Below are positions 14,497-52,505 of a DNA stretch of 64,000 nt, one piece after another. Location of the stretch: NCBI GenBank assembly GCA_964589765.1, contig CAZPUM010000001.1, positions 29,118 through 93,117 of the forward strand. Direction: 5' to 3'. The number at the start of each line of letters is the position of its first letter. The first letter of the stretch is position 1. The position numbers and the translations under genes are program-made. The stretch comes from an uncultured Methanosarcinales archaeon. Its GTDB lineage: Archaea > Nanobdellota > Nanobdellia > Woesearchaeales > UBA525. The notes below the pieces were generated by a model. That model saw only the letters and a program-made list of their open reading frames with translations. It had not been told where the DNA came from and did not search any database.

Positions 14497-15226
14497 GAGA
14501 TTCATAACCGACAGTTTCTATCTCATTAGCAAGCTCTTTTCCACCTGATTTTATTATTTTTCCGTCAGAAAAAATATGGACTTTATCAGGCACAACATAG
14601 TGAAGTATTCTGTTGTAATGAGTTATCAAAAGAGCGCCATGCTCAGGACCTCTAAGTTTGTTTATTCCTTCTGCAACAATTTTCAGAGCATCAACATCCA
14701 AACCTGAATCAGTCTCATCGAGAATAGCAAACTTAGGCATAAGCATAAGCATCTGGAGAATCTCCATTCGCTTTTTTTCTCCACCTGAGAACCCCTCATT
14801 AAGATAGCGCTTTGCGAAAGTAGGGTCAACCTTGAAATTGTGTAGTTTCTCATCGAATTTTCTGTGAAACTCAAGAACATCCTGTTCCTCGCCAGTAACT
14901 TCCTTCACTGCTTGCCTCATAAAGTTCTCAACAGTCACCCCTGGAATCTCTACAGGGTACTGGAAACTAAGGAACAACCCTTTTTTAGCACGTTCGTCTG
15001 GAGACCAGTCATTGAAAACCTCCCCATCAAGAAGCATAACCCCTTCAGTAATCTCATACTTGGGATGACCCATTATTACAAACGCGAGAGTGCTCTTACC
15101 ACTTCCATTTGGACCCATTAAAGCGTGGACCTCATTTGTATCTATCTCTAAGGATACCCCTTTCAGTATCTCTTTTCCATTGACACTTGCGTGAATATTT
15201 TTTAGTTCAAGAGTTGCCATTTTCAA
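14486..15226 (-). CDS. sufC: Fe-S cluster assembly ATPase SufC.
   Basis: GPNGSGKST Walker A; ABC signature SGGEKKR; SufC length. Confidence 0.9.
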   Translation of the reverse strand: MKMATLELKNIHASVNGKEILKGVSLEIDTNEVHALMGPNGSGKSTLAFVIMGHPKYEITEGVMLLDGEVFNDWSPDERAKKGLFLSFQYPVEIPGVTVENFMRQAVKEVTGEEQDVLEFHRKFDEKLHNFKVDPTFAKRYLNEGFSGGEKKRMEILQMLMLMPKFAILDETDSGLDVDALKIVAEGINKLRGPEHGALLITHYNRILHYVVPDKVHIFSDGKIIKSGGKELANEIETVGYESLMS

Positions 15227-16832
15227 CCTCCCTTATTGCGCACTGAGTAGCCCTAAGACCAAGCATTGCGCATCTTGCCCTGACAGGCTTTGTTGAGAAA
15301 TCTATCCCTGTTATTTTGTTTACAAAACTTAAATCCAGTTCCTGGACATCAATAACAGACATGCCTTTCAGCTTTGTTGTCAAAATGCTCATTGTTGCTT
15401 GCGATATCGCGCAACCATCGCCCATAAAAGCCACTTCCTTAATTTTGTCTTCAGAAACAACAACTGTTGCCTTGATTGTGTCTCCGCAATTAGGGTTTTT
15501 ACCAAGGCAACTATGACCTTCAATATCTTTTTTGTTTCTAGGGTTGAGCACATGGTCTCTGATATGCTCTTTAATCACTTCATCATCGACATCAATTGAG
15601 GCAGGGTCGTATGACTCGTTCATTGTATTTATGGCTTTGATTAGCCTGTCAACATCATCTTTTGTATTGTAAACCCCCAGGCTTATTCTGATAGTAAATA
15701 CTTCCTTGCCTGTTCCAATATCATTCTCATGCTCAAGACCTAACGCACAATGAAGAGGGTGTGTACAGTGGCTTCCCGCCCTCACAGCTATACCTTGCAT
15801 GTCAAGAGTTGAGGCAAAATCGTGGGGGTGCCAACCTTTCATAAGAACACTTACATCACCTATTCTGTTCTCAATTGTGTCAGGACCTATTATTGTTATC
15901 TCCGCGATATTTTTTAGCGAGTCCAAAAGATACTGAAGAACGTCTTGTTCGATTTTCTGAATCTTTACCCAACCCGTTTTTTGTATGAAATCTATCGCTG
16001 CCGAAAGCCCAACCGCCTGTGCTAGCGTGGGCGTTCCTGCCTCAAACTTTGCAACACCCTCTTTGAAAAGGGTGTCTTCAACCGTGACCTTTTCTACCAT
16101 TTCCCCCCCATAAATTACTGGAGGCCATGCTTTCAGAAGTTCTCTTTTTGCGTACAGGACTCCTATTCCAGAAGGCCCGTACATTTTGTGGGCGCCAAAA
16201 CAGTAGACATCAACATCAAGCGCCTTCACATCAACAGGCATGTGCGCAACTGCCTGCGCACCATCAACAACGAATGTTGCTTGTGGAGAATTTTCTCTTA
16301 CAATTTTACCAATCTCAACTATCTGATTTATAGTTCCAAGAACATTGCTCACATGTGTACAAGCGAAAACCTTCGTATTTTCGTTTAGTTTCTCTTTCAA
16401 CACCTCAAGGTCCAATCTGAAATCAGGAGTTATTGGAACAACATCAAACTTCAAGCCAAATTTTTTTGCCAGTTGTTGCCATACAACAAAGTTGCTGTGG
16501 TGCTCCATAATAGTTACAAGAACTTGATCTCCAGGTTTGAGTCCCTCAAATATTGCCCGCGCAGAAATATTCAATGCGAGTGTTGTTCCCGAACAGAAGA
16601 CTATCTCATCCGGTTCGGCATTGATGAACTGCGCGGTCTTATTTCTTGAATCCTCAAACGCTTTTGTTGCCCTTTCGGCAAGAACATGTGCACTCCTGTG
16701 CACATTTGCGTTGGAGGTCTCGTAGAACTTCCGTTCTGCATCCAACACCGCTTCAGGTTTCTGCGAGGTTGCCGCGGTGTCAAAGTAAACAATTCCAGGA
16801 TTGTTTTTTAGTAGGGGAAAAAACTCTTTCAT
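15207..16832 (-). CDS. sufS: Fusion protein: cysteine desulfurase SufS (N-terminal) plus a SufU/IscU-type scaffold domain (C-terminal).
   Basis: PLP-lysine motif GAHKMYGPSGIGVLY and RAGSHCTHP active-site Cys in the first about 400 aa. The C-terminal about 130 aa carry the three SufU cysteines (NCGD..., GDGCAISQA, RARCAML). Confidence 0.8.
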   Translation of the reverse strand: MKEFFPLLKNNPGIVYFDTAATSQKPEAVLDAERKFYETSNANVHRSAHVLAERATKAFEDSRNKTAQFINAEPDEIVFCSGTTLALNISARAIFEGLKPGDQVLVTIMEHHSNFVVWQQLAKKFGLKFDVVPITPDFRLDLEVLKEKLNENTKVFACTHVSNVLGTINQIVEIGKIVRENSPQATFVVDGAQAVAHMPVDVKALDVDVYCFGAHKMYGPSGIGVLYAKRELLKAWPPVIYGGEMVEKVTVEDTLFKEGVAKFEAGTPTLAQAVGLSAAIDFIQKTGWVKIQKIEQDVLQYLLDSLKNIAEITIIGPDTIENRIGDVSVLMKGWHPHDFASTLDMQGIAVRAGSHCTHPLHCALGLEHENDIGTGKEVFTIRISLGVYNTKDDVDRLIKAINTMNESYDPASIDVDDEVIKEHIRDHVLNPRNKKDIEGHSCLGKNPNCGDTIKATVVVSEDKIKEVAFMGDGCAISQATMSILTTKLKGMSVIDVQELDLSFVNKITGIDFSTKPVRARCAMLGLRATQCAIREVENGNS

Positions 16833-19748: not shown

Positions 19749-20723
19749 CTAATAAGGCCTTCTTGTTCCATCTTCGTCCACATGGAAGTCCTCTAGAAAG
19801 TCTTCTACCGTTATAGGGTACGGTTTTTCGTAGAAGTTATGGTCGTACCTGCCCAGAATCTTGAAATCGAAATGTGAAATACCCTGTGCCCAATCCCTGA
19901 GTCGTTCTCTCACATTATCGTTATGGTCTGAATCTAGTATCTCAACACCGTTTTTGTTGACCTTGACAAAATAGGCCCATCCTCTAGCGCCCCCATCGTA
20001 GTCTTGAAACAGTTTGTAACAGTTTCCATCCGCTGAGACTCTGTCATTTCTGGACAACATCCTGATAATATCAGGTTCAGGATTCTCATAGTTAATATCT
20101 TGGGGCCTATGATGGTTACAAAGAACAACTGTTTTCCTGTTGATATAGATTCCCGCGCCTTCCAGTAACCAAGAATAAACGTTGGCCTCCTGTTTTAGGA
20201 AGAAAATGTTTGGCCCAGAACCCCCAACTAACATATCAAAGATTGAGCCCATATTTAGTTGGAATCTGAAACTATCTGCGACATGAATTTTACCACCCAA
20301 ACATTTTGCCCAGCACTCTGCGTCCTCACCGACAAAGCATCTGTAAATATCCCCTCTTCTGATAAGAGCCTCTGATACTTCGTCCACTTTTTGTGGTCGC
20401 TTTGATTTGGCCTTTTTGTATTCCTCGACACGCTCAGCGGGACTCTTACTTTGAAGCCTTTCTGTTTTTGAAGTAGTCAGTAACTCTTTATGGACAACCA
20501 TTGTTTCAACAGTCCCTTCCAGGTCCTTGTCGAAGTTTGGCCTGTATGTCCTGGCATCAATAACTCTATTATCTTTCAAAGAAAATTCAGAAAGCTCTAT
20601 TTCTACAGGAAAACCCGATTCTGGCTCTTCTGCGAACACAACATCTCCATCCGCCGTGGCGTCGAGAACTGCTCTTTCGAGCCTCCTGGCTGAATCCATC
20701 TTCACGTATATTTTCCTGCCCAT
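19749..20723 (-). CDS. Hypothetical protein.
   Basis: About 325 aa with an internal start 25-30 nt downstream of a TATA-like catataaata; no recognised family. Confidence 0.4.
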   Translation of the reverse strand: MGRKIYVKMDSARRLERAVLDATADGDVVFAEEPESGFPVEIELSEFSLKDNRVIDARTYRPNFDKDLEGTVETMVVHKELLTTSKTERLQSKSPAERVEEYKKAKSKRPQKVDEVSEALIRRGDIYRCFVGEDAECWAKCLGGKIHVADSFRFQLNMGSIFDMLVGGSGPNIFFLKQEANVYSWLLEGAGIYINRKTVVLCNHHRPQDINYENPEPDIIRMLSRNDRVSADGNCYKLFQDYDGGARGWAYFVKVNKNGVEILDSDHNDNVRERLRDWAQGISHFDFKILGRYDHNFYEKPYPITVEDFLEDFHVDEDGTRRPY

Positions 20724-20810
20724 GCCATAATAGTAAAAAAGCACTCATATAAATATTCTGTAACAAGAAAATTACATAATAGTTAATAAGGGCAATCCCC
20801 GCACAATATT

Positions 20811-21339: not shown

Positions 21340-22317
21340 TTAATTCTCCTGAGGAACAGCCTGAATAATGATTGGCTGTTCGATGAACTCTCCGTACCTG
21401 TACTCAAGCTTGATGTCCATTGCGTCCGTATAGACCCTTGTTGCCGGACTACCACCAATTACTGTACATGTTACGGTCTGCGGGCTTCCTGCAAACAGAG
21501 TCACAATACCTGAGCCACCGCCACCAAGTCGTCCACATGATACTGTAGCACTCGGGTCCTGCATACTGACGTCCACATCGACCTTGAACTTATTACTGTT
21601 AGTAAAGCTGGGGTCACAGTTTTCATCAGGTTGCCTGCCGTAGAACTCTCCTGGACCGATGTGGTCTAGAACGAAGTTCACCATGATTCTGTTATCGGCC
21701 ATTGGACTCTGAGATACACCTGTGACATGAACAGGACCGCCTGAATTGTGGAAAGGCCTGTCTCCAACAAGAGTACATATGCTGTTGTCCTGAACGTTCT
21801 CAACAATCTCGTCTTTGAAGCATAGTTGTGTTGTGACATCAGTATGATAGTCGTAACATGCTGTTGCTCTGATTGTTATCAGGTCGTTACCCTGTCTTCT
21901 TCCCTGATAGTTCAGGTTGTCGAAAACAAAGTTTGTCACAAGCCCTCCAATTATTGTGCCATCGAAATTTTTCTGAGCACCACGGACCGGTTCCTGTAAT
22001 GTTTGTTGCATGTCCGCCTCTGTGATTCCGAAGTTTGACGGGTTGATACCCTCCAAACGCATCGTCATGTACGGGTTTTCAGTTCCCGGACCGATGTCGG
22101 CTTCACCGACGTTCTCAACAACTATATTGACGCTGAACGGGTAGTTTCCTCCGTCGTAGACTGCCGGAGGAGGAGCGCCATCCTGTAAGTAAAGCATAAC
22201 TCCAAGGTTTCCTCCAATGAAAGGGTCTACAACAGGGCCTCCCTGACCGCCTCCACCACAACCCGTTAGGATTAGTAGCGAAAGGACTACTGGTATCAAG
22301 AGATTCCTTGTTTTCAT
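21340..22317 (-). CDS. Secreted lipoprotein (lipobox LTGC), paralog family member A.
   Basis: Signal peptide plus Cys lipobox and a G-rich linker. Carries the shared module ...TACYDYHTDVTTQLCFKD...GGPVHVTGV.... Confidence 0.6.
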   Translation of the reverse strand: MKTRNLLIPVVLSLLILTGCGGGGQGGPVVDPFIGGNLGVMLYLQDGAPPPAVYDGGNYPFSVNIVVENVGEADIGPGTENPYMTMRLEGINPSNFGITEADMQQTLQEPVRGAQKNFDGTIIGGLVTNFVFDNLNYQGRRQGNDLITIRATACYDYHTDVTTQLCFKDEIVENVQDNSICTLVGDRPFHNSGGPVHVTGVSQSPMADNRIMVNFVLDHIGPGEFYGRQPDENCDPSFTNSNKFKVDVDVSMQDPSATVSCGRLGGGGSGIVTLFAGSPQTVTCTVIGGSPATRVYTDAMDIKLEYRYGEFIEQPIIIQAVPQEN

Positions 22318-22326
22318 TTTTCCACC

Positions 22327-23646
22327 TTATACTATTCTTTTAATTTGTACTTGTCTCTGTTGTGTCTGACTGTAACCATACCACAACTCTACAACAAGTG
22401 GTGCTTGGTATGCCGACTTAAGGTTGGCAAACTGAAGCGGATATGAACATGTTGTGGTTCCCCTTTCTGTCTTGGGATCCAATCTTATGACTTCAGGACT
22501 ACACTCGATTCCACCACGACCGCCACGGCCTGAAAGACCCAGTGTTCCAACTCTGACGTCACCAAGATAAACAATATTCTTGTGTTCAGGAGTAACTCTT
22601 CCAGGATAGTAGGGACTACACCTTTCAAGGTGACCTGCATCCCAGACCGTTCCGGAACCTACATTCTGAACATTAATTCTGAAAATAATCTTTTGCGGTG
22701 TGTTTTCCTGCTCAATGCTTGTGATTGCTACAGGAGCGCCGTTTCCTCCGTTCCATGTTTTACTCTGAGGATAGCAAACCTTTCTTATGTCAGAGTAAGG
22801 GTCAGGGTCTATACAGACAATCGGGTCTGCGTATGTTGTGTACTGGTAGCACGTTGTCAGCAAGAAACTCTGAACTGTCTGGTCAAGACCAGGAGGCCAG
22901 TTCACAATCTTTCCATTGTAAAGCAGATAATCTGTTTCGCCTCCTGGAAAATTATAGTCGTCCGCCGCCAGGAGGAATTCACGGCCGTTATGAATTCTGT
23001 AGTCAATCCCCGCGAGAAGCGCGATGAAAAGACGGCCGTTCTGATAATATTCAACGTTTCCAAGAATATTGTCTATGTTGAATGAGAACACTGAGCCAGA
23101 GGGGCTATCTGTATAGTCTATACCAATATCGAACTTTGTGGGGTCCCACCAGGATGAACCATGCCTACCAGAGATTGCGTTGATTAAATCAGCCAAACTG
23201 TCTAACCTGACTCTGGCTGTGTCCCCCCCGTAGTTTACCTCTAGGCCGTCACACCTGAATATACCTCCGTAATCTCCAAATCCTATGTTTCCGAATGTGA
23301 ACCCGCATGCACCTATGCCTCCTTCAGTTATACTGATTTCGTCAAAGACAAGTAGACTTGGGTCGAACCCGCTAACAAAAATTCCTCCTCTAGTATACGA
23401 TGCTCCTTTGTTTTGTAGGGCAACTCCGAAAGAGAACTCATTGTTTGAGTTATCCTGGGGACCATAATAGTACAGTCTCTGAGGAAGTCCTTCAAAATAT
23501 GATTCAACTCCTTCCTTACCTTTATAGTAATTTGCGTACTCGTTAATTCTATTATTATCGTTACCGCCTGAACCACACGCCGTCACTAAGAACATAGTTG
23601 AGACTAGCATCAGAAACAACACCAACCTGTTCTTCGTCATCACCAC
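22327..23646 (-). CDS. Secreted lipoprotein (lipobox VTAC), paralog family member B.
   Basis: Signal peptide plus lipobox. Shared module ...TTCYQYTTYADPIVCIDPDPYSD...NGAPVAITSIEQEN. Confidence 0.6.
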   Translation of the reverse strand: MVMTKNRLVLFLMLVSTMFLVTACGSGGNDNNRINEYANYYKGKEGVESYFEGLPQRLYYYGPQDNSNNEFSFGVALQNKGASYTRGGIFVSGFDPSLLVFDEISITEGGIGACGFTFGNIGFGDYGGIFRCDGLEVNYGGDTARVRLDSLADLINAISGRHGSSWWDPTKFDIGIDYTDSPSGSVFSFNIDNILGNVEYYQNGRLFIALLAGIDYRIHNGREFLLAADDYNFPGGETDYLLYNGKIVNWPPGLDQTVQSFLLTTCYQYTTYADPIVCIDPDPYSDIRKVCYPQSKTWNGGNGAPVAITSIEQENTPQKIIFRINVQNVGSGTVWDAGHLERCSPYYPGRVTPEHKNIVYLGDVRVGTLGLSGRGGRGGIECSPEVIRLDPKTERGTTTCSYPLQFANLKSAYQAPLVVELWYGYSQTQQRQVQIKRIV

Positions 23647-23688
23647 GTCGATACACTCCCGTTCTGAATTTTTAAATGTTCCGTCGAT

Positions 23689-25476
23689 TTAGCAAGAGAT
23701 AAAACCAAAGTAATCACCAACAACCAAATCTTGTCTTGAAACAGTTCGTTTTGCGACTGTATTTCCAACATTGCCTCCTACTATCTCCACTTTGTCTCCC
23801 TCTATACTAGTAATAATGTCGCAATGACTTGTAACGCCCGGCGCATAAGGATCAGTGTAACTTATAGGACAGCTGGAGCCTCTACAATTGCATACAATGT
23901 CACCAACTTTAATCTTTGATACCTCTTCAACTCTAAGAGTTCTACAACTACCTTCACCGCCCCTTACTTTTGTAAAGTACTCCCAGTGGTTACAACTTCT
24001 AGGGAAATTAACACCTGATTTACCCATTACATATGATATGTATGCTGCAGACCAAGGAGTTCCTCCACAAGTCCCAGAGCAACCTCCCGCTCTAAAGTAA
24101 TCTGCGACCCTGCCACTCACAGCAGAATCACACTCAGACCTTCCTCCAAAGTAATTATACTCATCAAGAGCTATTTGGCCTATTCGATTTGTTGAAACTG
24201 TTGTTTCCCTTGTTTTATCGCAACAGTAGGTTCCAGGCCTGCAAAGACCGACAATACACTTGCCTGAGCTGGCAAGCGCCAGACACGCATCCCTGCTACA
24301 AGAGCAACTGAACTCTGGATTTATTCTGTCCTGTATCTCTGAAGGCGCTTTATCAGGGTTCTCAGCGTAGTACCTACACTCTGTGTAAACAGTTCCATAA
24401 TCGTCAACAACAGGCTCCTCTCCTTGGTACATGACGCCTGTTTCTTTACCATAAGGTTCTAGGTCATTGGGAGTTATGTCAGGTCTTTCAGTTCCAGGTA
24501 TTCTGTTAACTTCCAGCGTTTTTGTCGTTGCGGTCTTGTACATGTAAGTTAGGTTAACAATCAGAACAGACTGAAAGTTCTGCTTACTGGCATAGATAGG
24601 GTCATTAAGATTATTGCTTGGAACAGTGCACCTAGCTACACCCTCGCCATCAAACATTTTGATTAGTTCACCCGGCTGACACTCAAGTTTGGTGCCCAAT
24701 AACCAAGCGTCCAGCTTAACTGTGTTTATCTGTTCAGAGGGGATTCCCTTAAGGAAACATGCTGTGTCCATAGGAAGTGATGCAGGACCAATAAGTCTGC
24801 CATCCCCAACATCTCTAAAATGAATTGTAAAATGTGGCCTTATTGATTCAGTGCCTAGCAGATTATCAACAACAGGGAAACTCTGAACCTCAATATCGGT
24901 TACTGTTATTGGAGCGCCTTGACCATTCGAGAAAGACACGTCTTGCTGTACACAAGGTTGTTCTCTTTCGTTTGCGTAGTACACATTTGTATCAATACAA
25001 ACATCAGATGTTGCAAGAGTGTTATACTTGTAACAAATACTTGCAGCAAGGTCTGTTTCAGGTTTTTGACGAGTTCCATAAACGGGTTTTACGAAAAATG
25101 AATAGAATGCAGGGACTGAGAATATCTTTTTCTCACCATCAGGCCATCCTAAAGAACGCCCCCTTATCAGTTCGCTCTCAGGATCATGTATGGTGGGCTC
25201 GTACTGCTGGACCTCTACAGGAATGTTAATGTACAACGGGTCTCCTGAGAATGTTATTAGCAAGTCATCATAATGAACGTTTGCCGCACCCATATTGTGA
25301 ACGCCTAATTTTACAGGGAAAGGTGTGTTTTCGTACACGGCATCAGGTGGTGCGTTTGATGCAAACTCAGGCACTAAACCGTTTTGTCCTTCGTAAGGGT
25401 TGTAGTTCTCCATACTTCCCCCCCTACACGAAGTGAGCATAAGAACCATTACTAACATGAGAATCCAGAATCTCAT
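23689..25476 (-). CDS. Secreted lipoprotein (lipobox LTSC), paralog member C, with a Cys-rich linker and a C-terminal NlpC/P60-CHAP-like cysteine peptidase domain.
   Basis: Shared module ...SICYKYNTLATSDVCIDTN...QGAPITVTDIEVQ. C-terminal GGCSG...AAYISYVMGKSGVNFPRS (Cys motif), GDIV, SHCDIITSIEGDKVEIVGGNVGNTV (His motif). Confidence 0.6.
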   Translation of the reverse strand: MRFWILMLVMVLMLTSCRGGSMENYNPYEGQNGLVPEFASNAPPDAVYENTPFPVKLGVHNMGAANVHYDDLLITFSGDPLYINIPVEVQQYEPTIHDPESELIRGRSLGWPDGEKKIFSVPAFYSFFVKPVYGTRQKPETDLAASICYKYNTLATSDVCIDTNVYYANEREQPCVQQDVSFSNGQGAPITVTDIEVQSFPVVDNLLGTESIRPHFTIHFRDVGDGRLIGPASLPMDTACFLKGIPSEQINTVKLDAWLLGTKLECQPGELIKMFDGEGVARCTVPSNNLNDPIYASKQNFQSVLIVNLTYMYKTATTKTLEVNRIPGTERPDITPNDLEPYGKETGVMYQGEEPVVDDYGTVYTECRYYAENPDKAPSEIQDRINPEFSCSCSRDACLALASSGKCIVGLCRPGTYCCDKTRETTVSTNRIGQIALDEYNYFGGRSECDSAVSGRVADYFRAGGCSGTCGGTPWSAAYISYVMGKSGVNFPRSCNHWEYFTKVRGGEGSCRTLRVEEVSKIKVGDIVCNCRGSSCPISYTDPYAPGVTSHCDIITSIEGDKVEIVGGNVGNTVAKRTVSRQDLVVGDYFGFISC

Positions 25477-27272
25477 CTGACCATCACCTGTGTTGCAGCC
25501 TCAATTGTGTAACTGTAATAAGCCACAGCTATAATGCTTCTCTCTGTTTTGTCTGCCTCGCTGATTAATGGGTACAAATCAGCACCTTCACGCACACCAA
25601 GTTTACAAGTTATGCTTGTATAAGTGGTAATTGGACCTGCATTCTTGTTTTCAAAGACATAGTTAGTATAATCTGGTTCGAATGGGTCAGGCTCCTGTCT
25701 ACACTCGTTAGGATTGTTCTCGCACCTATCACATTCGTAAAGTTCGAACGGTTCAGGCACCTTGAGTTCTATTTTGTTAACTTGATTTAGTTGACCGCTC
25801 CCCCACCCAGGGTCTAGAGTTAAACCGATTCTTGTTCCTGCGGGGATTGGGTTTTCCTCGGCCGGATTAATCCTGATTGGCTGAGGAGTGCCTCCCATTC
25901 CTATCTTTAATGGTCCCGCCGTGAAAATGGCGGTTGGATTAGGATCGATATCCAGAACATCTCTTACATCCAGGCCTTGCCTGGCAAGGTTTCTTGCCCT
26001 TTCATCATCTACAAAAGAGAATGTTATGTATGCCCAGGTCTGGAAAGGGAATGTTGCGAAAGATTTGATTCTGTAAGTTCCCGTTTCATCTATAGCACCA
26101 AATTTACACTCATATACCCCTGCAGTACCAAGAACAATATCGAGTATTTCGGGATCGACACTTGCCTCTTCAGTAATGGCTCGCCTATCAATCACACAAG
26201 ACGGAACAACCTTCAAAGAGTCTTCGTCATCTATGAATGTTTTTGCGTAGATTGTTCCGTAAACTGATAAGGGCATGTCTGTCGTGATAGTTCTATCAAT
26301 AGGCCTTAAATCTTCAAACTTAACACCTATGTCTGCCTCAGCATTATCTTCTACCCGCCCAGTATAATAAGCACCAGGGTTCAGGGTTTCATTTATTGTT
26401 CGGCCTATGCCTGAACCTATGTTTGTGAAAGCCTCGACAAAAGTATCAAACATATTTATTGCCGAGCCAGAAACATCCAACCCTCCAACCCCTACGATGG
26501 GCATGGTTGACAATGTCGGGAAGAAAATCAGACCAAAGAATAACACGATGAAGGATATCATCAATAATATTTTGTATATTCTGAATATCTTTGCTGCAGT
26601 TTCACTTGCCTGAGACAGTCTTTGTAACATGTAGATTGGCCAAACAGGAACAATGACTGCCAAGAAAAACAAAGCTCCGTGAATATTCTCGCTCCATGTG
26701 AACGCCTCTGCAACAGCAGGCATACAGTACATTACCGCACCTGCCAAAGAAACAACAAAAATTGACTTCTTACTCGTGTCACCAATTGCAACAATATAGG
26801 TTAGTCCTAAAGCGGACATCACAGCAAAGTATGTTATGAATGAGGCTGTTGAAGCACCAAATCTGAAAACAAAAATTACAAACAAGTGTATAAGTATTGA
26901 AATTATGAAAAAAAGAGTCGGGCCTCCTGTAAGAGCGTCAGCTGTCACGTTACCCCCTACGTTCAGTAGTTTTTTACCACCTGCCTTTCCCACTGCCCCC
27001 GCACCTTTTGCCAGACCTGAAATAGCATCTTTCAGAGTTGAACGCGCCTCGCTTATCCCTTTTTCAGCCTTTAAGTCATCTGAATGAGAATCACCTGATG
27101 GAACAGAAGGAGTGGCAATTGACGAAGAACCTTCTCCAGTTCCTCCGTCCGTTTTTACATCAATATCTAGCTCCACTTTGTTTCCATCTTTACTTACTTC
27201 AGAACCAACAGGACCTTTTAGCTTAGCCTCAACTTCCTCTCTTAGCTTCTCTTCTTCGTCAGCCATGCTCAC
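25473..27272 (-). CDS. Polytopic membrane protein (about 5-6 TM helices) with an acidic/K-rich cytoplasmic N-terminus and an extracytoplasmic C-terminal domain of about 330 aa.
   Basis: Hydrophobic helices span aa about 125-330. The C-terminal domain carries a related Cys-containing motif (YECDRCENNPNECRQEPDPFEPDY...GPITTYTSITC). Overlaps flanking genes by 4 bp. Confidence 0.55.
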   Translation of the reverse strand: MSMADEEEKLREEVEAKLKGPVGSEVSKDGNKVELDIDVKTDGGTGEGSSSIATPSVPSGDSHSDDLKAEKGISEARSTLKDAISGLAKGAGAVGKAGGKKLLNVGGNVTADALTGGPTLFFIISILIHLFVIFVFRFGASTASFITYFAVMSALGLTYIVAIGDTSKKSIFVVSLAGAVMYCMPAVAEAFTWSENIHGALFFLAVIVPVWPIYMLQRLSQASETAAKIFRIYKILLMISFIVLFFGLIFFPTLSTMPIVGVGGLDVSGSAINMFDTFVEAFTNIGSGIGRTINETLNPGAYYTGRVEDNAEADIGVKFEDLRPIDRTITTDMPLSVYGTIYAKTFIDDEDSLKVVPSCVIDRRAITEEASVDPEILDIVLGTAGVYECKFGAIDETGTYRIKSFATFPFQTWAYITFSFVDDERARNLARQGLDVRDVLDIDPNPTAIFTAGPLKIGMGGTPQPIRINPAEENPIPAGTRIGLTLDPGWGSGQLNQVNKIELKVPEPFELYECDRCENNPNECRQEPDPFEPDYTNYVFENKNAGPITTYTSITCKLGVREGADLYPLISEADKTERSIIAVAYYSYTIEAATQVMVR

Positions 27273-27281
27273 CTCAAACCA

Positions 27282-28553
27282 CTATACTATCTCGAGCTTG
27301 AGCTCGGCCACATCCAGGCGGTCAACGTGCGGCGCAATCTGAATAGTGTTCGGGCCAGGATTTATTATTCCTGGGTCAATGACCGCCTGCCATACATAAT
27401 CCTGCGTGCTGAAACTCTGAACAAATCCGTTCACCACAACCTCGCCTGATTTTACATTTCGATAATCTGTGAACGTCATGGTAAGAACCAATTGACCATA
27501 GCCAAGGTCGATTCCCTCATACATTTCCATTGGCAGATTGAAGTAATACACAGGGTAATCAGACTGTCGCATCTCTAAGGTCAACTTGATGTTGTCAACG
27601 ACATACTGTCCTCCCTGGACAGCAGCCATGAAAAGTCTGTTTTCTCCAACCCTCAGATACTCTTTTGGAACATCTGTCTTGAACCGGACTCCACAGTCCA
27701 CAAGACCTGTGTAGAGTATGTTTGGTACTGTGAATGTGTTATTGTCAGAATCCCTGACAAGCCTGTCGTTTAAATGAACGACCAACCTGCCTGCGTTGCT
27801 CGGGTCACAGTCAGGAATAAATTCAAGCTGAGCTGCTCTGAAAGCACCTATCTCTTCCTCAGAAACACTGAAAGTTTGTTCACTCACACTTCCTGACTGG
27901 TCAATAACGTCCGCACTTATCTGAATGTTTCTTAGCTTATACGCATTTGGTTGCCAGAATGCAAGACCTGTATCGTCTGTCTGGAGAGTTATAACATTCT
28001 CTCCTTCAACAAAGTAGTCTGTTGGCAACTGAATTGGTGGCGGGCTTGGTTCTCTAATGGGCCTTTCGTAAATCTGGTTTCCATTGATAAGAATCCTTAA
28101 AGGTCCTGAACCCGCCTCTTCTAAACTGAAGCTCAAAAGATAGTTTCCACTCCCCTCTTTTCCCGGAGTGAATGGTATCGACATGTCTTTCTTTGCAAAA
28201 ATACCATTCTTTACAATTCCTGAGTCTATAGATTTCACAACCTGTGTGTTGATTCTTGTGAATATTGTTGAAGTAGGAATATTATGTTCTTGTATCGGAC
28301 TCCTCAGAAATCTCAGAGTCCCCGGGGTCTCTGTAAGTACCAAAACTGGGCCATACTGCGTGAAGCTTCCGCCTCCTGAACCACCTCCCGACCAGGACTG
28401 GCCACCAAACCCCCCATCACCACCAAAAAGCAACTGGTCACGTTCGGCAGGAGGAAGGAATAAGATATAGAGCAGAAGGAAACCTGCTATGATTGCAATC
28501 AAGACAGCTGAGCCCGAAGCAGTCTGTCCCCGTCGAGAGCCTCCACCTAACAT
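27282..28553 (-). CDS. Signal-anchored (single N-terminal TM) surface protein with a Gly-rich linker and repeated beta-rich segments.
   Basis: N-terminal TM AVLIAIIAGFLLLYILFL; GGDGGFGGQSWSGGGSGGGS linker; three xVxxNGxx-type repeats. Confidence 0.5.
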   Translation of the reverse strand: MLGGGSRRGQTASGSAVLIAIIAGFLLLYILFLPPAERDQLLFGGDGGFGGQSWSGGGSGGGSFTQYGPVLVLTETPGTLRFLRSPIQEHNIPTSTIFTRINTQVVKSIDSGIVKNGIFAKKDMSIPFTPGKEGSGNYLLSFSLEEAGSGPLRILINGNQIYERPIREPSPPPIQLPTDYFVEGENVITLQTDDTGLAFWQPNAYKLRNIQISADVIDQSGSVSEQTFSVSEEEIGAFRAAQLEFIPDCDPSNAGRLVVHLNDRLVRDSDNNTFTVPNILYTGLVDCGVRFKTDVPKEYLRVGENRLFMAAVQGGQYVVDNIKLTLEMRQSDYPVYYFNLPMEMYEGIDLGYGQLVLTMTFTDYRNVKSGEVVVNGFVQSFSTQDYVWQAVIDPGIINPGPNTIQIAPHVDRLDVAELKLEIV

Positions 28554-28609: not shown

Positions 28610-29632
28610 ATGCGAATCACCCATAAGGACCTAAAACAGGGAACCATTGCGGTTCAAACACAAACTCCCGACGATTTATGGTATTTGACTACCATAGTTA
28701 ACGAGGGAGATATAGTGCTGGGTAGCTCTGAGTACAAATTCAAACTAGGCGGTTCAGATGCCAAGCAGAAGATTGTGAAAAAAAAGGTCACAGTTGAGCT
28801 GGAAGTGGAGAAAGTCGAACTTTCAGGAAATATAACTCGGATTTCAGGAGTTGTGACAGGAGGTTCAGAGGATGTTCCCAGGGGAAGCCACCACGGAATT
28901 GACATTGAGGAAGGTTCCAGAATAACAATCAAAAAGGAAAGATGGCTGGATTTCCAGCTCGAAAAACTAAAAGAGGCCTGTAACTCTGGCGGTTCTGGTA
29001 CAGTACTCTGTCTTTTTGACAGAGAGTTTGCCAGAATTCTCAGACTAAAGCCTAACGGGGTGGATGTTTTATCGGAGATAAAGGGCGATGTTCCCAAGAA
29101 AGGTGTTGATGAAGAGAAACAACACAGGTTTTACAAGGAGATAGCAGAAAGACTTGAAACAGTTGAGGCCCAGCAAATTCTTGCTGCCAGTCCGGCTTTC
29201 TGGAAACAGTACTTAGAGAAAGAACTTTCCGCTGAGACGAAGAATAAGACCATATTCACTTCAGTCAGCGGAACAGATGATACTGCTGTAAAAGAATTGT
29301 TGAAATCAAAAGAGTTACAGCAGGTTCTACAAAACGAACGTTCTGCCCGTGAAGAGAACATGCTCGAAGATGTTATGTCCGCCTTGGGAAAAGACATGCT
29401 CGTTTACGGCAAGGACGATGTCAAGGCGGTTCTATCAGAGGGTAACTGTCTCGCGCTTTATGTTTCTGAGAATGAGATTGTGAAAGCGCGAGCCGAGAAC
29501 AGGTATCCCTCTCTTGAGGCTATCATGAAAACCGCAGGCGACCTCGATGCAAAGGTCCGTCTGTTCTCAACACGGGAACCTATGGTTAAGATTGACGGGC
29601 TTGGCGGAGTTGTGGTGGTCAAGAGATGGTGA
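28610..29632 (+). CDS. pelA: Pelota (Dom34) ribosome-rescue factor.
   Basis: N-terminus MRITHKDLKQGTIAVQTQTPDDLWYL matches the Pelota signature; eRF1-like three-domain length about 340 aa. Internal ATG chosen 28 nt after a TATA (atatataaaag). Confidence 0.8.
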   Translation: MRITHKDLKQGTIAVQTQTPDDLWYLTTIVNEGDIVLGSSEYKFKLGGSDAKQKIVKKKVTVELEVEKVELSGNITRISGVVTGGSEDVPRGSHHGIDIEEGSRITIKKERWLDFQLEKLKEACNSGGSGTVLCLFDREFARILRLKPNGVDVLSEIKGDVPKKGVDEEKQHRFYKEIAERLETVEAQQILAASPAFWKQYLEKELSAETKNKTIFTSVSGTDDTAVKELLKSKELQQVLQNERSAREENMLEDVMSALGKDMLVYGKDDVKAVLSEGNCLALYVSENEIVKARAENRYPSLEAIMKTAGDLDAKVRLFSTREPMVKIDGLGGVVVVKRW

Positions 29633-30225
29633 TTCCGGTATTCACTGTATCAGTTCCTGAATACCAAGTTAGAAAATATGATTCAGATGGCCGAGTATTT
29701 GAAGTTCCTAATTACGGTATTGAAATACCTGAGATTTATGAGGATAACAAGCCCAACTTTGAGAAATATGGTAGAATTATTGATGGTTGTCTGAAAGAAC
29801 ATTTTCTAGGAAAAAAAGTAGCCATACGGGTTCTTGGCTCTTGTGAACACCCTAATAGAACCCAAGATGAATTGATTGAAATCATCAAAGAGATAGGACA
29901 CGATAGATATGATGCTGACCGTACAGGAGATCGATATGAAAACATTGAGAACAAAGAAATTGAAATTTTCGCCATGCCACCATATGTGGTAAAAGAAAAT
30001 GAAGAATATTTCAAAAATTTCCTAATCCCTTTTTACTATTGGCCCATCAAACAAAGAGGATATCCTGTAAGGGTTGATATTGCCATAATCTACAACCCCG
30101 CCCTGCTTATCGAAGTCCCTCACATATACAAAGGAAGGGAAAACGAACTAAAGAAAGATGGATTTGTGTTTAAAGACCCAAAAAACAAATCAAACGCCAT
30201 TATAGGCATAATAAAAATTGAATAA
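29626..30225 (+). CDS. Hypothetical protein co-operonic with pelota.
   Basis: A 199-aa ORF with a 7-bp overlap onto pelota and an 8-bp overlap onto the downstream methyltransferase. Confidence 0.4.
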   Translation: MVIPVFTVSVPEYQVRKYDSDGRVFEVPNYGIEIPEIYEDNKPNFEKYGRIIDGCLKEHFLGKKVAIRVLGSCEHPNRTQDELIEIIKEIGHDRYDADRTGDRYENIENKEIEIFAMPPYVVKENEEYFKNFLIPFYYWPIKQRGYPVRVDIAIIYNPALLIEVPHIYKGRENELKKDGFVFKDPKNKSNAIIGIIKIE

Positions 30226-39778: not shown

Positions 39779-41443
39779 ATGAAGAAGGGAAGCCCTCCTA
39801 TGCCTGTCTTATTGGTTTTGGCCACGTCTCTCTTAGTTGCGGGCATTCTGACCACTTACACTGCAGGAATCTATGCCTCTACAACGGTGTTTGGAGTGGG
39901 AATTCTACTGTTCTTCGGCATAGCACTTTACAATACAAAGATAGATGCGGGAAAACCCACAGCAATAGTCAGCATAACCGTTGCTGTGGTGTTGGCCATA
40001 ATTATGGCATCAACATTGTTCACAATTGTCCAGACTACCATTCCTGTCTGCGGTGATGGCATTTGCGCACCGTACGAGTGCGACGAGAATTGTGAAGACT
40101 GCACTCCTGACGATTGTCTAAACGGCATATGTCAAAGACCACTTGAGACTTGCGAGAACAGCCCTGACTGTTCTTGTCCGGGCGGAACTATCTGTGTTCC
40201 GGAAAGACCGGGAGTGGACCCTACAGGTTGCTTCTGGATTAAGTGTGGCGACAATTATTGCGACAAAGGAGAGTCCTCAAAAAACTGTTGTTCCGATTGT
40301 AAATGCGAAGCAGGGTATGAATGTAGACAAAATCAATGTTTCTTTTTACCGCCTAAGATGGCTTTCAACACTTTCCTTTTCAGCGATGAAATCGGTGCCA
40401 GCACTTTAGCTGCCAACCCCAACCTGAGAAATGAATCAGGAACCCCCCACCCCTTGGTGGCATTGGATTTGACAAACCAAGGAAGCTTCGCATCAGATGT
40501 TAGAGTCAGATTCAAGCTAGATGAGGTTTTTGAAGAGAGTTTTTCAGTGGGTTCTATGGATAAAGGAGACAACAAAGATGTTTTGTGGTTCCTTGACGAA
40601 ACCCCTCTTTATCTCTCGATTGTAGAAGATATTGATACAAACATAACTGTGACTGTAGAGTACACGACAACTGAAAATATTAGGAACTCTTTCAGCGTTA
40701 ACTATCCAATCAAAATTTTAAACAGAGGCAAACTTGATGATATTGGGGAGCTCGCATACTACGTAACCAAGGATATCAAACCAAATGGTAAAACCATAGA
40801 TATGATTTGGGAAGAATACAGAAAACAACTAGAACTCAGACCTAATGATGGAATTATTCAGTATCCTTTAGAGACTCTTATTTATGGCGGAGGCGACGAT
40901 AAAGACTTAGCCGTTTTCTTTGCCAGCGCTTTTTATGGTGCGGGAAAAATTACCCAGTTTGCCAACACAACTGATGGGATGATGCTTTGGGTAAGGTACA
41001 GAGGTAATTACGAAGTACTTGATACAAGACACGTTGACTTAAATTTTGCTAAGGCGCTTGACTCGCGACCGGAACGTACCACATTGAGCAGTTTCGATGA
41101 GGTTTGGGAAATGCACAGCATAGAACCGACAACATTTGACGCGAGAATGCTTCCTGGAATGAAAATAATCTCCTCATCAGAGGTTAGCCAGGAATGTGAC
41201 TGTGTAAGCTATTGCGGTCAAAAGGTTGAAGCAATCCACAAGATTATCAACCGAGGCTTGGTTAAATCAAAACTCTGCGCCAAATCTACAATAGAACTTA
41301 ACGATGAAATTCTCAACCAAAAAGAATGGTGTTTTTCTGTAAGCCCCGAACATTTAATCTCACTAGAACACCTATGGAAAAGCAACTCAACATGTCAAGA
41401 TGTTGATGTAGAAATCAAAGTGTGGAACGCTACCTTTTCATGA
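39779..41443 (+). CDS. Membrane-anchored (3 N-terminal TM) Cys-rich surface protein with CGDGIC-type repeats and a C-terminal globular domain.
   Basis: Three TM helices. Repeats CGDGICAPYECDENCEDCTPDDC.../...CKCEAGYEC. The C-terminal region has transglutaminase-like spacing (AVFFASAFYGAGKI...MMLWVRY) without an obvious catalytic Cys. Confidence 0.55.
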   Translation: MKKGSPPMPVLLVLATSLLVAGILTTYTAGIYASTTVFGVGILLFFGIALYNTKIDAGKPTAIVSITVAVVLAIIMASTLFTIVQTTIPVCGDGICAPYECDENCEDCTPDDCLNGICQRPLETCENSPDCSCPGGTICVPERPGVDPTGCFWIKCGDNYCDKGESSKNCCSDCKCEAGYECRQNQCFFLPPKMAFNTFLFSDEIGASTLAANPNLRNESGTPHPLVALDLTNQGSFASDVRVRFKLDEVFEESFSVGSMDKGDNKDVLWFLDETPLYLSIVEDIDTNITVTVEYTTTENIRNSFSVNYPIKILNRGKLDDIGELAYYVTKDIKPNGKTIDMIWEEYRKQLELRPNDGIIQYPLETLIYGGGDDKDLAVFFASAFYGAGKITQFANTTDGMMLWVRYRGNYEVLDTRHVDLNFAKALDSRPERTTLSSFDEVWEMHSIEPTTFDARMLPGMKIISSSEVSQECDCVSYCGQKVEAIHKIINRGLVKSKLCAKSTIELNDEILNQKEWCFSVSPEHLISLEHLWKSNSTCQDVDVEIKVWNATFS

Positions 41444-44672: not shown

Positions 44673-45092
44673 TTACATCATCCTCCTTATCAGGTCGTCC
44701 ATGCTTGGCCTTTTGCCAAGGACGCCACCGTTTTGATAACTGACCTTAATACCCTTCCGGGAGAAACCACCGCGTGGCGGTGCTAGTCTGAAAACATTTT
44801 CACTGACGGGCTTTCTCTTTGCGGAAAGCTCTTTGATAACTTCAGGGCTGACCTCTCCGTAAGCCGTGAAATCTTTCACCTTTCTCAGAATCCCCTGATT
44901 CACCTTGTTGTCAGGAATGATTGCACAAACATGCTTTCTAAGTAGTTTTAGCGAGTCAAGCGCTTTTAGGATGTCGTGCCTTACGCCTATCTGGCGACCT
45001 CTGATTAGAATAACCGCAAACTGCTTTGCCTTTGGCGCAGGTTTCTCCACTGGCGCCGGCTTCTCTGTTTTTTTCTCTTCGGTCATAATCAC
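44673..45092 (-). CDS. rpl30: Ribosomal protein uL30.
   Basis: Archaeal L30 core (FAVILIRGRQIGVRHDILKAL). Confidence 0.85.
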   Translation of the reverse strand: MIMTEEKKTEKPAPVEKPAPKAKQFAVILIRGRQIGVRHDILKALDSLKLLRKHVCAIIPDNKVNQGILRKVKDFTAYGEVSPEVIKELSAKRKPVSENVFRLAPPRGGFSRKGIKVSYQNGGVLGKRPSMDDLIRRMM

Positions 45093-45871
45093 TCACTCGC
45101 TTCTGCCTGAATCTCTTCAGGAGTCTCAATCTTCTTGGTATTTTTCTTCTCACTACCATCTATAACAAGATGCTGTGCTTTGTAAGCCTCTGACATCTTC
45201 ATCTTGTTCAATTGACGAAGTGCTTTCTCACAAGCTTTAATCAGGTTGGTCTTAGTTTTTGTTTGGCCTAAGGTCTTACTCCAGACATTCTTAACGCCTG
45301 CGAGTGCTAAAATCTTTGCCACTTCTTTCTCAGTTGCAAGACCTTTACCTTTAGGTGCGGGCAACAATCTAAGAATGACGCTTCCGCACTTGCCTTCAAC
45401 AGCAAATGGCAGACTGTGTCCTGTCTCTGCCTTATCTTCCCAGCTTCCAACTCCACGTCGGATTTTAAAGAGGTTAAGCTTTGCCTGTCGAATCGCTTTG
45501 TCTCTTGCAGGGACTGTTTCCTTGCTACTTCCAAATCCAATTCCGACGTGTCCATTCCTGTCACCTACAACTGCGGTAACGCTGAACTTTGGCTTGTTTC
45601 CTTCTTTGGTCTTTTTCTGGGTGTTTTTGAAAATCCTTCTCTGACCTCCTCCGAACTTACCCTTGGCCTGGCCAATTAGCAGGAAGTCCATTTCGAGGTT
45701 TGGTATTAACGCATCGATTATCTCAGGTTCCAGAATTCTCTCACCGGAGTCAAGAATCTTATCGATATCTTTAATCTCCTTGTTCTTTACCGCGCGACCC
45801 AGAGCGGTTTTTGGTTTCCACTCTGCCACGTCGAATTCGGGCATTGTTTCCTTTCTTTTTTGATACGCCAT
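45089..45871 (-). CDS. rps5: Ribosomal protein uS5 with a K/E-rich C-terminal tail.
   Basis: dsRBD plus S5 C-terminal domain (VTAVVGDRNGHVGIGFGSSKE). Confidence 0.9.
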   Translation of the reverse strand: MAYQKRKETMPEFDVAEWKPKTALGRAVKNKEIKDIDKILDSGERILEPEIIDALIPNLEMDFLLIGQAKGKFGGGQRRIFKNTQKKTKEGNKPKFSVTAVVGDRNGHVGIGFGSSKETVPARDKAIRQAKLNLFKIRRGVGSWEDKAETGHSLPFAVEGKCGSVILRLLPAPKGKGLATEKEVAKILALAGVKNVWSKTLGQTKTKTNLIKACEKALRQLNKMKMSEAYKAQHLVIDGSEKKNTKKIETPEEIQAEASE

Positions 45872-45875
45872 ATTT

Positions 45876-46367
45876 TCACTTCGTAATCTTGCCTTTCACA
45901 TCGGTCACCATCTTTGTGACCTTTTCATCGATGTGCTTTCCGTTAATGCGGTCGTCTGATGGAAGCGCTTCTTCACTGATGCGAACTTTCAGTCCGCCTT
46001 CGATTGCTCCTTTTGCTACCGCATAAATTCTGCCACCCTTGTGGTGCTTCTGCAGACCTATGTCAACAATGATTTCATCTTTGATGTTGCTCTTCTTTGC
46101 AAGAAGAATTCCTGTCAGGTATGCCGCAGGAGTGTTTCCTGTGTTTCCCTTCCAGCCAAGCTTCGATAAATCCGTCGCTCTTGCAGTCGCAAGTACTATG
46201 TCACCATCTTCATGATACTGAACCAACTGTGCTTGGACGCTTTTATTGCTACCTCTGACAACCAGTCGGGGTAAGTGGCTTTTCAGCAATGACAATCGCT
46301 TCTTATAATCCGTACGACCTTCACGCTTCCTCCTGTATGCTAGTACTCTTGCGCCCATTTTAATCAC
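45876..46367 (-). CDS. rpl18: Ribosomal protein uL18.
   Basis: L18/L5e signature (RLVVRGSNKSVQAQLV). Confidence 0.9.
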   Translation of the reverse strand: MIKMGARVLAYRRKREGRTDYKKRLSLLKSHLPRLVVRGSNKSVQAQLVQYHEDGDIVLATARATDLSKLGWKGNTGNTPAAYLTGILLAKKSNIKDEIIVDIGLQKHHKGGRIYAVAKGAIEGGLKVRISEEALPSDDRINGKHIDEKVTKMVTDVKGKITK

Positions 46368-46818
46368 TCTTCACCATATTATTTTCATTCATGTACAACT
46401 TAATGTGACGGACACTTCTAAAGTATCCTCCTTTCACTTTTCTGTAAAGTAATCTGTAGCCCTCTGATGTCAGAATGCTTTTGTCTTTAAGCTCCTTGAT
46501 GAAATTTCTCTGTGCTCTGACCTTTCTCATCCAAGCTTCTTTTGAGGGGTTTCTTGCTGTGGATTTTCCTTCGCGACTTCCCGCACCTTTTCTAAGCCCC
46601 TTACTTCTCTGTACGGCATTCTTTCTTGCTCTGACTCTGCTCACTCCCTTTATGGGTTCAGCAGATATTAGTCCTTCACGAACCAGCTCGCGAATATCCT
46701 CCTTTGTGATTGCTGCTTTGATATCATTAAGCCTGGAAGGGTCAAACTTGACTCTCTTCTGGGTTGCTTTTAGGACATCAGCGGACAATCTTTTCTGGAG
46801 TGTTAGGTCATATGCCAT
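46360..46818 (-). CDS. rpl19e: Ribosomal protein eL19 (L19e).
   Basis: L19e N-terminus (LQKRLSADVLK). Confidence 0.9.
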   Translation of the reverse strand: MAYDLTLQKRLSADVLKATQKRVKFDPSRLNDIKAAITKEDIRELVREGLISAEPIKGVSRVRARKNAVQRSKGLRKGAGSREGKSTARNPSKEAWMRKVRAQRNFIKELKDKSILTSEGYRLLYRKVKGGYFRSVRHIKLYMNENNMVKSD

Positions 46819-46824
46819 GTATCA

Positions 46825-47526
46825 TCACTTTTTTTCGGAAGGTTTTGGTTCTAGAGAGTCCTTGGAATTCACATTAGCTTTAGTTCCCTGTTGGGTTTTG
46901 GGCTTCTTTGGAGACTCCTTTGTTGACTCTTCTTTCTTGACGGTTGGTTTTTCATCCGCCTTTACTTCCTTCTCTATTTTTTTCTCAAGAGCTTCTGTGG
47001 GTTTCGAAGTTTCTTCGGAATCTTTTTTCTTCTCAGACTCTTCCGCTTCTTTTTCCAGCTCTTTTTGTTTCTTTTCTCGCTCCTGATCGCGCTCCTTCTT
47101 GGACTTACTCTGTGCTTCAAAGTCAGCTTTAATCTTGTCTGCGCGCTCTTTGGATGCGTTTAGGAATGTGAATCCTGCTTTTAGGCCAGCCTCAATGACA
47201 ACTGCCTTTTTCTTGCCCCCTAGTTTTCCACTAACAACAAGTGTGTGCACTTTTGGGTCGAAGTCTTCAAAGTTAACAGATGTTACGATAACAGGAAATA
47301 GACCGTCTTTAGTCTGACCGCGCACAACAACAGGGGTCTGATACCCTCCTTTGAGGTGCTTACGATATCCTTTCCTGTTGTCACCAATTTTGTTGTGAAG
47401 GCCTGTTGGCTTTCTCCACTTTGATGCGAGTTTACTCTTTTTGTGAGCATCCTGTCTGATGAACTTTGGCTGTTTTTTCTTCAAGTTAGCCTTCACATCC
47501 AACAGTCTCTTTTTGTCATCTGCCAT
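46825..47526 (-). CDS. rpl32e: Ribosomal protein eL32 (L32e) with a long K/E-rich C-terminal extension.
   Basis: L32e core (KFIRQDAHKKSKLASKWRKPTGLHNK); tail EKKQKELEKEAEESEKKK.... Confidence 0.85.
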   Translation of the reverse strand: MADDKKRLLDVKANLKKKQPKFIRQDAHKKSKLASKWRKPTGLHNKIGDNRKGYRKHLKGGYQTPVVVRGQTKDGLFPVIVTSVNFEDFDPKVHTLVVSGKLGGKKKAVVIEAGLKAGFTFLNASKERADKIKADFEAQSKSKKERDQEREKKQKELEKEAEESEKKKDSEETSKPTEALEKKIEKEVKADEKPTVKKEESTKESPKKPKTQQGTKANVNSKDSLEPKPSEKK

Positions 47527-47528
47527 GA

Positions 47529-48074: not shown

Positions 48075-48086
48075 TGTTTCACTTCC

Positions 48087-48719: not shown

Positions 48720-48721
48720 GT

Positions 48722-49947: not shown

Positions 49948-49951
49948 TTGA

Positions 49952-50733: not shown

Positions 50734-50735
50734 GA

Positions 50736-52501: not shown

Positions 52502-52505
52502 ATGA

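Follow-up and report, generated by a model that had tools for sequence, protein, structure and literature searches.

A predicted surface lipoprotein of a Woesearchaeota-type archaeon joins a lineage-specific carrier to a DUF2272 domain with serine at the nucleophile position, a candidate murein hydrolase

Large extracellular proteins with SLT domains have been described from Woesearchaeota and Pacearchaeota and were proposed to act on bacterial cell walls (Castelle 2021, PMC8204110; Vigneron 2022, PMC9723730), and a further proposal for such proteins has been published (PMC10936187). For some archaeal peptidoglycan hydrolases the killing of bacteria has been demonstrated experimentally, and Woldo and Danwoldo from Halogranum salarium are experimentally established enzymes of the peptidoglycan-hydrolase class (Strock et al. 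2025, PMC12352652). The family DUF2272 (PF10030), which belongs to the NlpC/P60-CHAP-amidase group, is listed among the papain-like families in which Ser replaces the catalytic Cys (Ozhelvaci & Steczkiewicz 2023, PMC10318531), and its described members are mostly bacterial; many are small proteins or carry a fused PG_binding_1 or PG_binding_3 domain. Here, a gene is analyzed that places such a domain on an archaeal lipoprotein carrier. It is located on the minus strand at positions 23689..25476 of a 64,000-nucleotide stretch of contig CAZPUM010000001.1 (hereafter the window), starts with ATG, and encodes a predicted surface lipoprotein of 595 amino acids (aa) that is identical to P0001, an NCBI protein from a 101-kb contig, and consists of a carrier module and a DUF2272 domain. 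A preliminary description of this gene, made from the DNA letters and their translation, had proposed a cysteine peptidase domain of the NlpC/P60-CHAP type at the C-terminus; its observation is confirmed and its interpretation is partly supported. The target differs from the described DUF2272 proteins also in belonging to a DPANN subgroup that has four extra conserved Cys residues and a C-terminus ending in ...GFISC.

The domain spans aa 430-595 (23692..24189, minus strand) and has the NlpC/P60-CHAP fold. Pfam DUF2272 matched the protein at aa 471-579 with 72 bits (cutoff 27; E 7.7e-20; profile positions 44-163 of 191) and the isolated domain with 75.6 bits, whereas among NCBIfam models only a sub-threshold match to TIGR02594 was obtained. 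The protein has no match to CHAP (PF05257) at E<=1, none to NlpC/P60 (PF00877), and no SLT (GH23) domain. The CHAP model matched 5 of 35 relatives (best E 1.7e-6), and several bacterial DUF2272 proteins scored 25.2-29.5 bits against it (cutoff 26). Among 1.84 billion representative proteins, searched exhaustively with a profile, 1568 relatives reached E<=1e-3, 43 of them even E<=1e-30; the closest DUF2272 relatives carry the names Woesearchaeota or Pacearchaeota. A word-indexed search for homologues returned nothing when the query was restricted to the C-terminal 170 aa, whereas the full-length query and a profile of 35 sequences found relatives; PDB sequence searches with the domain and with the same family profile found no solved relative. 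The AlphaFold2 model of aa 423-595 based on the 35-sequence alignment (predicted local distance difference test, pLDDT, 94.1; predicted template modelling score, pTM, 0.90) has the papain-like alpha+beta fold of the NlpC/P60-CHAP superfamily (Pfam clan Peptidase_CA), in which a helix with the nucleophile position precedes an antiparallel sheet with the His and the polar residue; with an alignment of only 2 sequences the model was unusable (pLDDT 47). Judged by these sequence comparisons the resemblance is far beyond chance, and the DUF2272 match, the profile relatives, and the confident model establish that the preliminary description had assigned the fold correctly, although the papain-like family in question is DUF2272 and the Pfam CHAP and NLPC_P60 models miss the protein. 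All strings quoted in that description are present in the translation (CSCSRDACLALASSGKCIVGLCRPGTYCC at aa 391-419, GGCSGTCGG at 464-472, YISYVMGKSGVNFPRS at 479-494, GDIV at 525-528, and SHCDIITSIEGDKVEIVGGNVGNTV at 550-574). The extent it gave, 23689-24160, covers aa 440-595 and the stop codon, but according to alignment and model the domain begins about 10 residues earlier, at aa 430 (24189).

Conservation was counted in the 150 closest relatives, 45 of which constitute the closest subgroup and 105 of which lie outside it. The DUF2272 signature W-S-A-A-F/Y...G-D...H-C-D...G-G-N is complete in the target, which thus shares with the family the Ser at the nucleophile position. This candidate nucleophile, Ser476 (codon TCT; 24049..24051, minus strand) in the context PW-S-AAY, is present in 147 of the relatives, the remainder being one Cys and two gaps, and is preceded by W475 (148/150). 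G525 (149/150) and D526 (145/150) follow. Within H-C-D, the candidate general base His551 (23824..23826, minus strand) is found in 148 relatives, C552 in 137, and D553 in 144, and within G-G-N the counts are 146 for G567, 147 for G568, and 147 for Asn569 (23770..23772, minus strand), the candidate third polar residue. In the model, S476 (model residue 54) opens the central helix (residues 54-65), H551 is located at the beginning of a strand (residues 128-137), and N569 comes after the next strand. The His of CHAP enzymes likewise sits in a strand, with a polar Glu or Asn about 17-19 residues further on, and N569 follows H551 by 18 residues; at the N-terminus of the central helix, where these enzymes have their catalytic Cys, the target has Ser476. 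The assignments of the His and GGN motifs in the preliminary description are therefore borne out. Two Cys residues close to this site, C529 of GDIVC (144/150) and the aforementioned C552, are located on two strands of the modelled sheet, which suggests a structural pair or a disulfide beside the active site. C552 was also considered as nucleophile and rejected: 11 of the 150 relatives have G, S, T, or A in its place, and it should face the opposite side as strand neighbour of the His and co-varies with C529 throughout the family. The four extra Cys of the DPANN-type subgroup (C511, C531, C536, and C595) are each kept in 42-44 of its 45 sequences.

The correspondence to cysteine-dependent enzymes was traced through a relative of the Cys type, P0130, whose four complete domains show the motifs TPW-C-AAY...GDAILFD...H-IGVVE...TIE-G-N...GYINC and are true CHAP domains according to Pfam (46.9 bits). 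The DUF2272 profile aligns W-S, H-C-D, and G-G-N with W-C, H-I-G, and E-G-N of P0130. In the CHAP profile, the Cys of P0130 and, in six bacterial DUF2272 proteins, the Ser both fall on position 9, and the last position, 81, receives the Asn of G-G-N, the Asn of E-G-N in P0130, and N136 of LysK. The sequences of LysK and MepS were verified against PDB; since C54 of LysK would nominally fall on CHAP position 11, not 9, if its first residues are ungapped, the equivalence of the nucleophiles rests on P0130, and LysK was used for the equivalence of the C-terminal Asn only. Together, conservation, model, and the P0130 alignment argue for a CHAP-like fold with the candidate residues Ser476, His551, and Asn569, and not for a cysteine peptidase that would use C466. 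P0130 itself is 1988 aa long, and among the relatives of the DUF2272 profile that carry Cys, its tandem, near-identical domains are the closest.

From the CHAP murein amidases and endopeptidases (LysK/LysGH15, PlyC, Ly7917, PlyGRCS) the target thus differs by Ser in place of the catalytic Cys, by a Gly at the position of LysK E134, and by scoring below the CHAP model. Compared with NlpC/P60 enzymes (MEROPS C40; MepS, LytE, Trichomonas vaginalis NlpC1) it has neither a PF00877 match nor the Cys-His-His triad, Ser again replacing Cys, and its motifs follow the CHAP pattern (E/G-x-N), not the H...H pattern of NlpC/P60. The amidase effectors of type VI secretion systems (Tse1/Tae1, Tae3, Ssp1) and the TIGR02594 proteins are Cys enzymes that are injected and paired with immunity proteins, whereas no such secretion system is present here, an immunity gene is neither required nor observed, and the target is predicted to be anchored on the surface of its producer.

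This anchoring is suggested by the N-terminus, where a predicted signal peptide (25426..25476, minus strand) of M1-R2 and a hydrophobic run ends in L14-T15-S16-C17, a sequence fitting the lipobox pattern [LVI][ASTVI][GAS]C. C17 is invariant in 7/7 family members and would be the predicted site of lipid modification. The core N-terminal module (aa ~18-330; 24487..25425, minus strand) is lineage-specific and paralogous to the two lipoproteins encoded downstream (BLASTP E 6e-13 for the 439-aa and 2e-6 for the 325-aa protein), and the N-terminal module has no match in Pfam and no sequence match in PDB. It is followed by a spacer and a mini-domain with eight Cys residues (C367, C391, C393, C398, C407, C412, C418, C419; 24220..24486, minus strand). 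The mini-domain proper, aa 367-419 (24220..24378), has the pattern C..CxCx4Cx8Cx4Cx5CC and matches no known family. The preliminary description had treated a part of it as a Cys-rich linker of the enzyme domain. However, all eight Cys are invariant in 7/7 orthologues whichever C-terminal domain follows, including entirely different ones, and the stretch therefore belongs to the carrier and not to the enzyme domain. At two loci the mini-domain also occurs without any enzyme domain (L008, 1366-2748; L021, 1433-2647). Lipobox, the four extra conserved Cys residues of the C-terminal domain, which may form disulfides, and the membrane or secreted nature of the operon partners jointly point to an extracytoplasmic location.

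Seven proteins share aa 1-420 with overall identities of 39-44% (42-50% in local alignments), full-length homologues being few, and beyond aa ~420 the orthologues diverge completely. A DUF2272 domain forms the C-terminus of the target and of P0002, P0009, P0010, and P0011. An SLT domain occupies this place in P0003, P0005, P0006, and P0007, which represent four 90%-identity clusters (Pfam E 1.9e-7 to 1.3e-11), as well as at the genomic locus L004, and P0004 alone has a Pfam-confirmed 3D domain. The SLT orthologues retain the catalytic E-S motif and are 40-43% identical to the target overall and 44-50% over the shared N-terminal ~70%. Synteny of the SLT version was demonstrated for P0005 at locus L001 and for L004. 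The gene order around P0005 is FmrO, Pelota, a 422-aa gene, a 594-aa membrane protein, the enzyme gene, two paralogues of 444 and 323 aa, and SufBD. A scan of the GTDB species genomes detected the N-terminal core at 38 loci, all of them in metagenome-assembled genomes (MAGs) of Woesearchaeota/Nanoarchaeota type and arranged as tandem triplets. In the usual locus, seen in most of the 38, a divergent pelota gene precedes the genes for an N-terminally anchored protein (~400 aa) and a polytopic membrane protein (500-1245 aa), after which three paralogues of ~310 aa each follow in tandem; only in the clade of the window is the first paralogue extended with the 8-Cys mini-domain and an enzyme domain. 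In this clade, for which these comparisons establish the domain swap itself, the first of the three paralogous lipoproteins probably serves as a carrier for the interchangeable murein-cleaving domains DUF2272, SLT, and 3D, a proposal held with moderate confidence as one part of the overall explanation given below.

SLT, 3D, and NlpC/P60-CHAP-fold domains are types that cleave murein in bacteria. To our knowledge, archaea of the kind studied here do not make murein, and no murein-synthesis genes were seen among the genes of the window. Of 120 bacterial DUF2272 proteins listed, 37 are fused to PG_binding_1 and/or PG_binding_3 (own count). Given these fusions and the SLT and 3D domains at the orthologous position, bacterial murein is the likeliest substrate, and the occurrence of other wall-cutting domains at the same spot in sister genomes suggests that these wall-less archaea probably attack bacterial cell walls. 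The foreign substrate, host or prey, that the preliminary description had considered probable alongside an unusual self polymer thereby gains support. The explanation that we favor overall, and regard as fairly but by no means highly probable, is a surface-anchored carrier with a Ser-type DUF2272 murein hydrolase aimed at the wall of a bacterial host or prey. Anchored in the membrane at the archaeal surface through its lipobox, the lineage-specific carrier of ~420 aa (core module plus 8-Cys mini-domain) would hold the C-terminal DUF2272 domain outward. There, His551, oriented by Asn569, would activate Ser476 at the N-terminus of the central helix for attack on an amide bond in the peptide part of bacterial peptidoglycan. 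Candidate bonds are the linkage between N-acetylmuramic acid and L-Ala or one within the stem peptide, as in CHAP and NlpC/P60 enzymes, and cleavage would locally open the wall of the touched cell, which might serve to breach this wall or to remodel it. A VirB1-like hole-puncher was considered as another role but gains no support from two bacterial conjugative-plasmid contexts of DUF2272, which showed no clear link to transfer machinery.

The same lineage and the same proposed role, attack on or attachment to bacterial walls, connect the target with the published SLT proteins of Woesearchaeota and Pacearchaeota, and the SLT orthologues share its N-terminal carrier. However, the published proteins carry a glycan-cleaving domain whereas DUF2272 is of the peptide-bond hydrolase type, and their family fam00969 reaches up to 3,000 aa compared with 570-650 aa for the proteins studied here. 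Giant proteins were also observed among the DUF2272 relatives: P0013, P0014, P0021, P0037, and P0057 (2212-2895 aa) contain the DPANN-type DUF2272 domain of the target in a C-terminal or near-C-terminal location, one of the giants is named Pacearchaeota, and they parallel the giant SLT proteins published for these lineages. Woldo and Danwoldo are likewise secreted archaeal enzymes with bacterial-type catalytic domains directed against bacterial murein; unlike the target, they have M23 or glucosaminidase domains, PG_binding_1, and Tat signals. The survey published with them (PMC12352652) does not include PF10030 and PF06725 in its domain list and required a known wall-binding domain, which the carrier is not; it would therefore not capture the target family.

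Several observations weigh against the favored explanation. Searches of the literature and PDB found no biochemically characterized or solved member of DUF2272, and the Ser nucleophile in this family was called speculative by the authors who listed it (PMC10318531). Direct alignment of the family profile with the single sequences of the LysK CHAP domain or MepS by hhalign was not significant (Prob 0.4%), which is the reason why the bridge through P0130 and the positions of the Pfam CHAP profile was used. The target protein has no recognized peptidoglycan-binding domain. At the thresholds used, DUF2272 was found neither in 50,697 phage genomes searched by tblastn nor in PHROGs, a further difference from the CHAP enzymes; DUF2272 is thus not a known lysin type, and the idea of a phage lysin was dropped. 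Finally, Woesearchaeota have also been linked to methanogens in work cited within PMC9723730.

A polymer other than murein might be the substrate. The enzyme could remodel the archaeon's own envelope as the cell grows or divides, or it could act on an archaeal host, for instance a methanogen, whose wall consists of pseudomurein or otherwise contains peptides. Set beside the SLT and 3D domains at the orthologous position and the bacterial PG-binding fusions, we regard this as improbable. About equally unlikely is that DUF2272 is a catalytically dead papain-fold module which binds a muropeptide or another ligand and acts as an adhesin attaching the archaeon to the wall of a partner. The presence of Ser instead of Cys at the nucleophile position would fit this, as would the existence of inactive, peptidoglycan-binding NlpC/P60-like families (e.g., DUF1175, as cited in PMC10318531) and the lack of any reported activity for a DUF2272 member in the literature and PDB searches. 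It is disfavored because Ser, His, and Asn hardly vary: the catalytic residues of dead enzymes usually drift, whereas these three are each found in 147-148 of 150 diverse sequences, and the Ser, although only one base change away from Cys, is almost never replaced. Moreover, SLT, which has its E-S motif, and 3D, the alternative domains at the same locus, look capable of catalysis.

Considerably less probable still is the classical Cys peptidase of the NlpC/P60-CHAP type, in which Cys466 (24079..24081, minus strand) would be the nucleophile, displaced by a short insertion, as the preliminary description had proposed. C466-S467-G468 does resemble the DCSG motif of NlpC/P60, and within the closest subgroup 29 of 45 sequences have C466; however, it is found in only 35 of all 150 and in 6 of the 105 outside this subgroup. 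In the model it lies in a loop (residue 44), ten residues ahead of the catalytic helix, and the alignment to the CHAP domain sets the catalytic Cys on S476. The hydrophobic residues at i+3 and i+4 of the known nucleophiles (C-x-x-L-I in LysK, C-x-x-F-V in MepS) also agree with S476-A-A-Y-I and not with C466-S-G-T-C, so that C466 is not the catalytic position. An artefact of assembly or binning, by which a bacterial DUF2272 gene was joined to archaeal sequence, would be in line with the Pfam description of the family as 'conserved in bacteria' and with its mostly bacterial relatives. But an in-frame fusion joins the domain to a module restricted to Woesearchaeota/Nanoarchaeota-type genomes, and the same fusion recurs in at least five separate 50%-identity clusters from different samples (P0001, P0002, P0009, P0010, P0011). 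Both flanks are archaeal and syntenic with other MAGs, the flanking proteins being 46-81% identical to those of the Woesearchaeota MAG GCA_018221245.1, and the guanine-plus-cytosine content is even across the target region. The recurrent fusion to an archaeon-specific module and the conserved archaeal synteny exclude contamination for all practical purposes.

The window as a whole is archaeal and encodes S4e, L32e, a Pelota/eRF1-like protein, the primase large subunit, SecY, both PheRS subunits (alpha and beta), and SufBCD; no tRNA or Rfam matches were found in it. The target gene is part of a cluster of five genes (21340..28553, minus strand), which begins beside the divergently transcribed pelota gene with a 423-aa protein that has one N-terminal hydrophobic anchor (RRGQTASGSAVLIAIIAGFLLLYILF; 27282..28553) and keeps this position in related loci. 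It is followed by a polytopic membrane protein of 599 aa (25473..27272) with ~5 transmembrane segments and an ectodomain of ~330 aa according to hydropathy, for which an orthologue exists at the same position in most related loci and whose stop codon overlaps the ATG of the target gene (ATGA). Downstream of the target follow the second and the third paralogous lipoprotein, of 439 aa (22327..23646; lipobox VTAC; 61% identity to the orthologues at L001 and L002) and 325 aa (21340..22317; lipobox LTGC; 65% identity to the orthologue at L001). Neither the anchored nor the polytopic protein nor the paralogous lipoproteins of the cluster have a match in Pfam or PDB. The ~400-aa anchored protein has a possible class-III or pilin-like signal (RRGQ|TASGSAVLIAIIAGF...). 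The cluster may represent a core envelope or host-contact structure of the order.

Some further features of these sequences were noted. Eight of the loci (L013, L015, L016, L021, L026, L027, L037, L038) stem from records titled 'uncultured Methanosarcinales archaeon' although they have the Woesearchaeota-type cluster; these taxonomic labels are probably wrong, or the bins mixed. Inside the SufBD/ABC ATPase cluster of the window, a 541-aa protein (15207..16832, minus strand) fuses a class-V aminotransferase of the cysteine desulfurase type to a NifU_N scaffold. Open reading frames (ORFs) without Pfam match encode 554 aa (39779..41443, plus strand), 199 aa (29626..30225, plus strand), and 331 aa (19749..20744, minus strand); the 199-aa ORF is situated between the Pelota and FmrO genes, and was not called at the corresponding place of L001. 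In the ribosomal operon (45089..55453) several ORFs far exceed their Pfam domains (L32e 233, L22 221, S5 260, L4 314 aa), which could reflect real extensions or start codons set too far upstream.

The DUF2272 family has been catalogued before, and the idea of murein hydrolases in Woesearchaeota has been published for the SLT version. In the literature we found neither the DUF2272 (serine) version nor any case in which three types of murein-cleaving domain replace one another at a single syntenic position, nor such domains joined to one of the paralogues of a conserved envelope cluster of Woesearchaeota. Because a Ser almost invariably takes the place of the catalytic Cys in its CHAP-like fold, the family, with more than 1,500 relatives, is a candidate catalytic variant, and if the proposed activity is true, an active DUF2272 enzyme with a Ser nucleophile would be a catalytic type not yet demonstrated for the CHAP/NlpC-P60 superfamily. 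As the family lies outside the reach of the published survey, archaeal enzymes directed against bacteria may be under-counted. More tentatively, and with clearly lower confidence than the explanation favored above, the cluster beside pelota can be viewed as a cell-surface partner-engagement apparatus of episymbionts, in which the swappable SLT, 3D, and DUF2272 'warheads' of one clade, the last being active Ser enzymes, would mark parasites or predators of bacteria, not of archaea. If bacterial walls were not the target, the repeated exchange of murein-cleaving domains on a surface carrier at a fixed position would be difficult to account for; this exchange also offers three concrete enzyme types for testing. 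The finding thus bears on the hosts of the Woesearchaeota, which are among the most widespread DPANN groups, and on whether any DPANN archaeon lives on bacteria.

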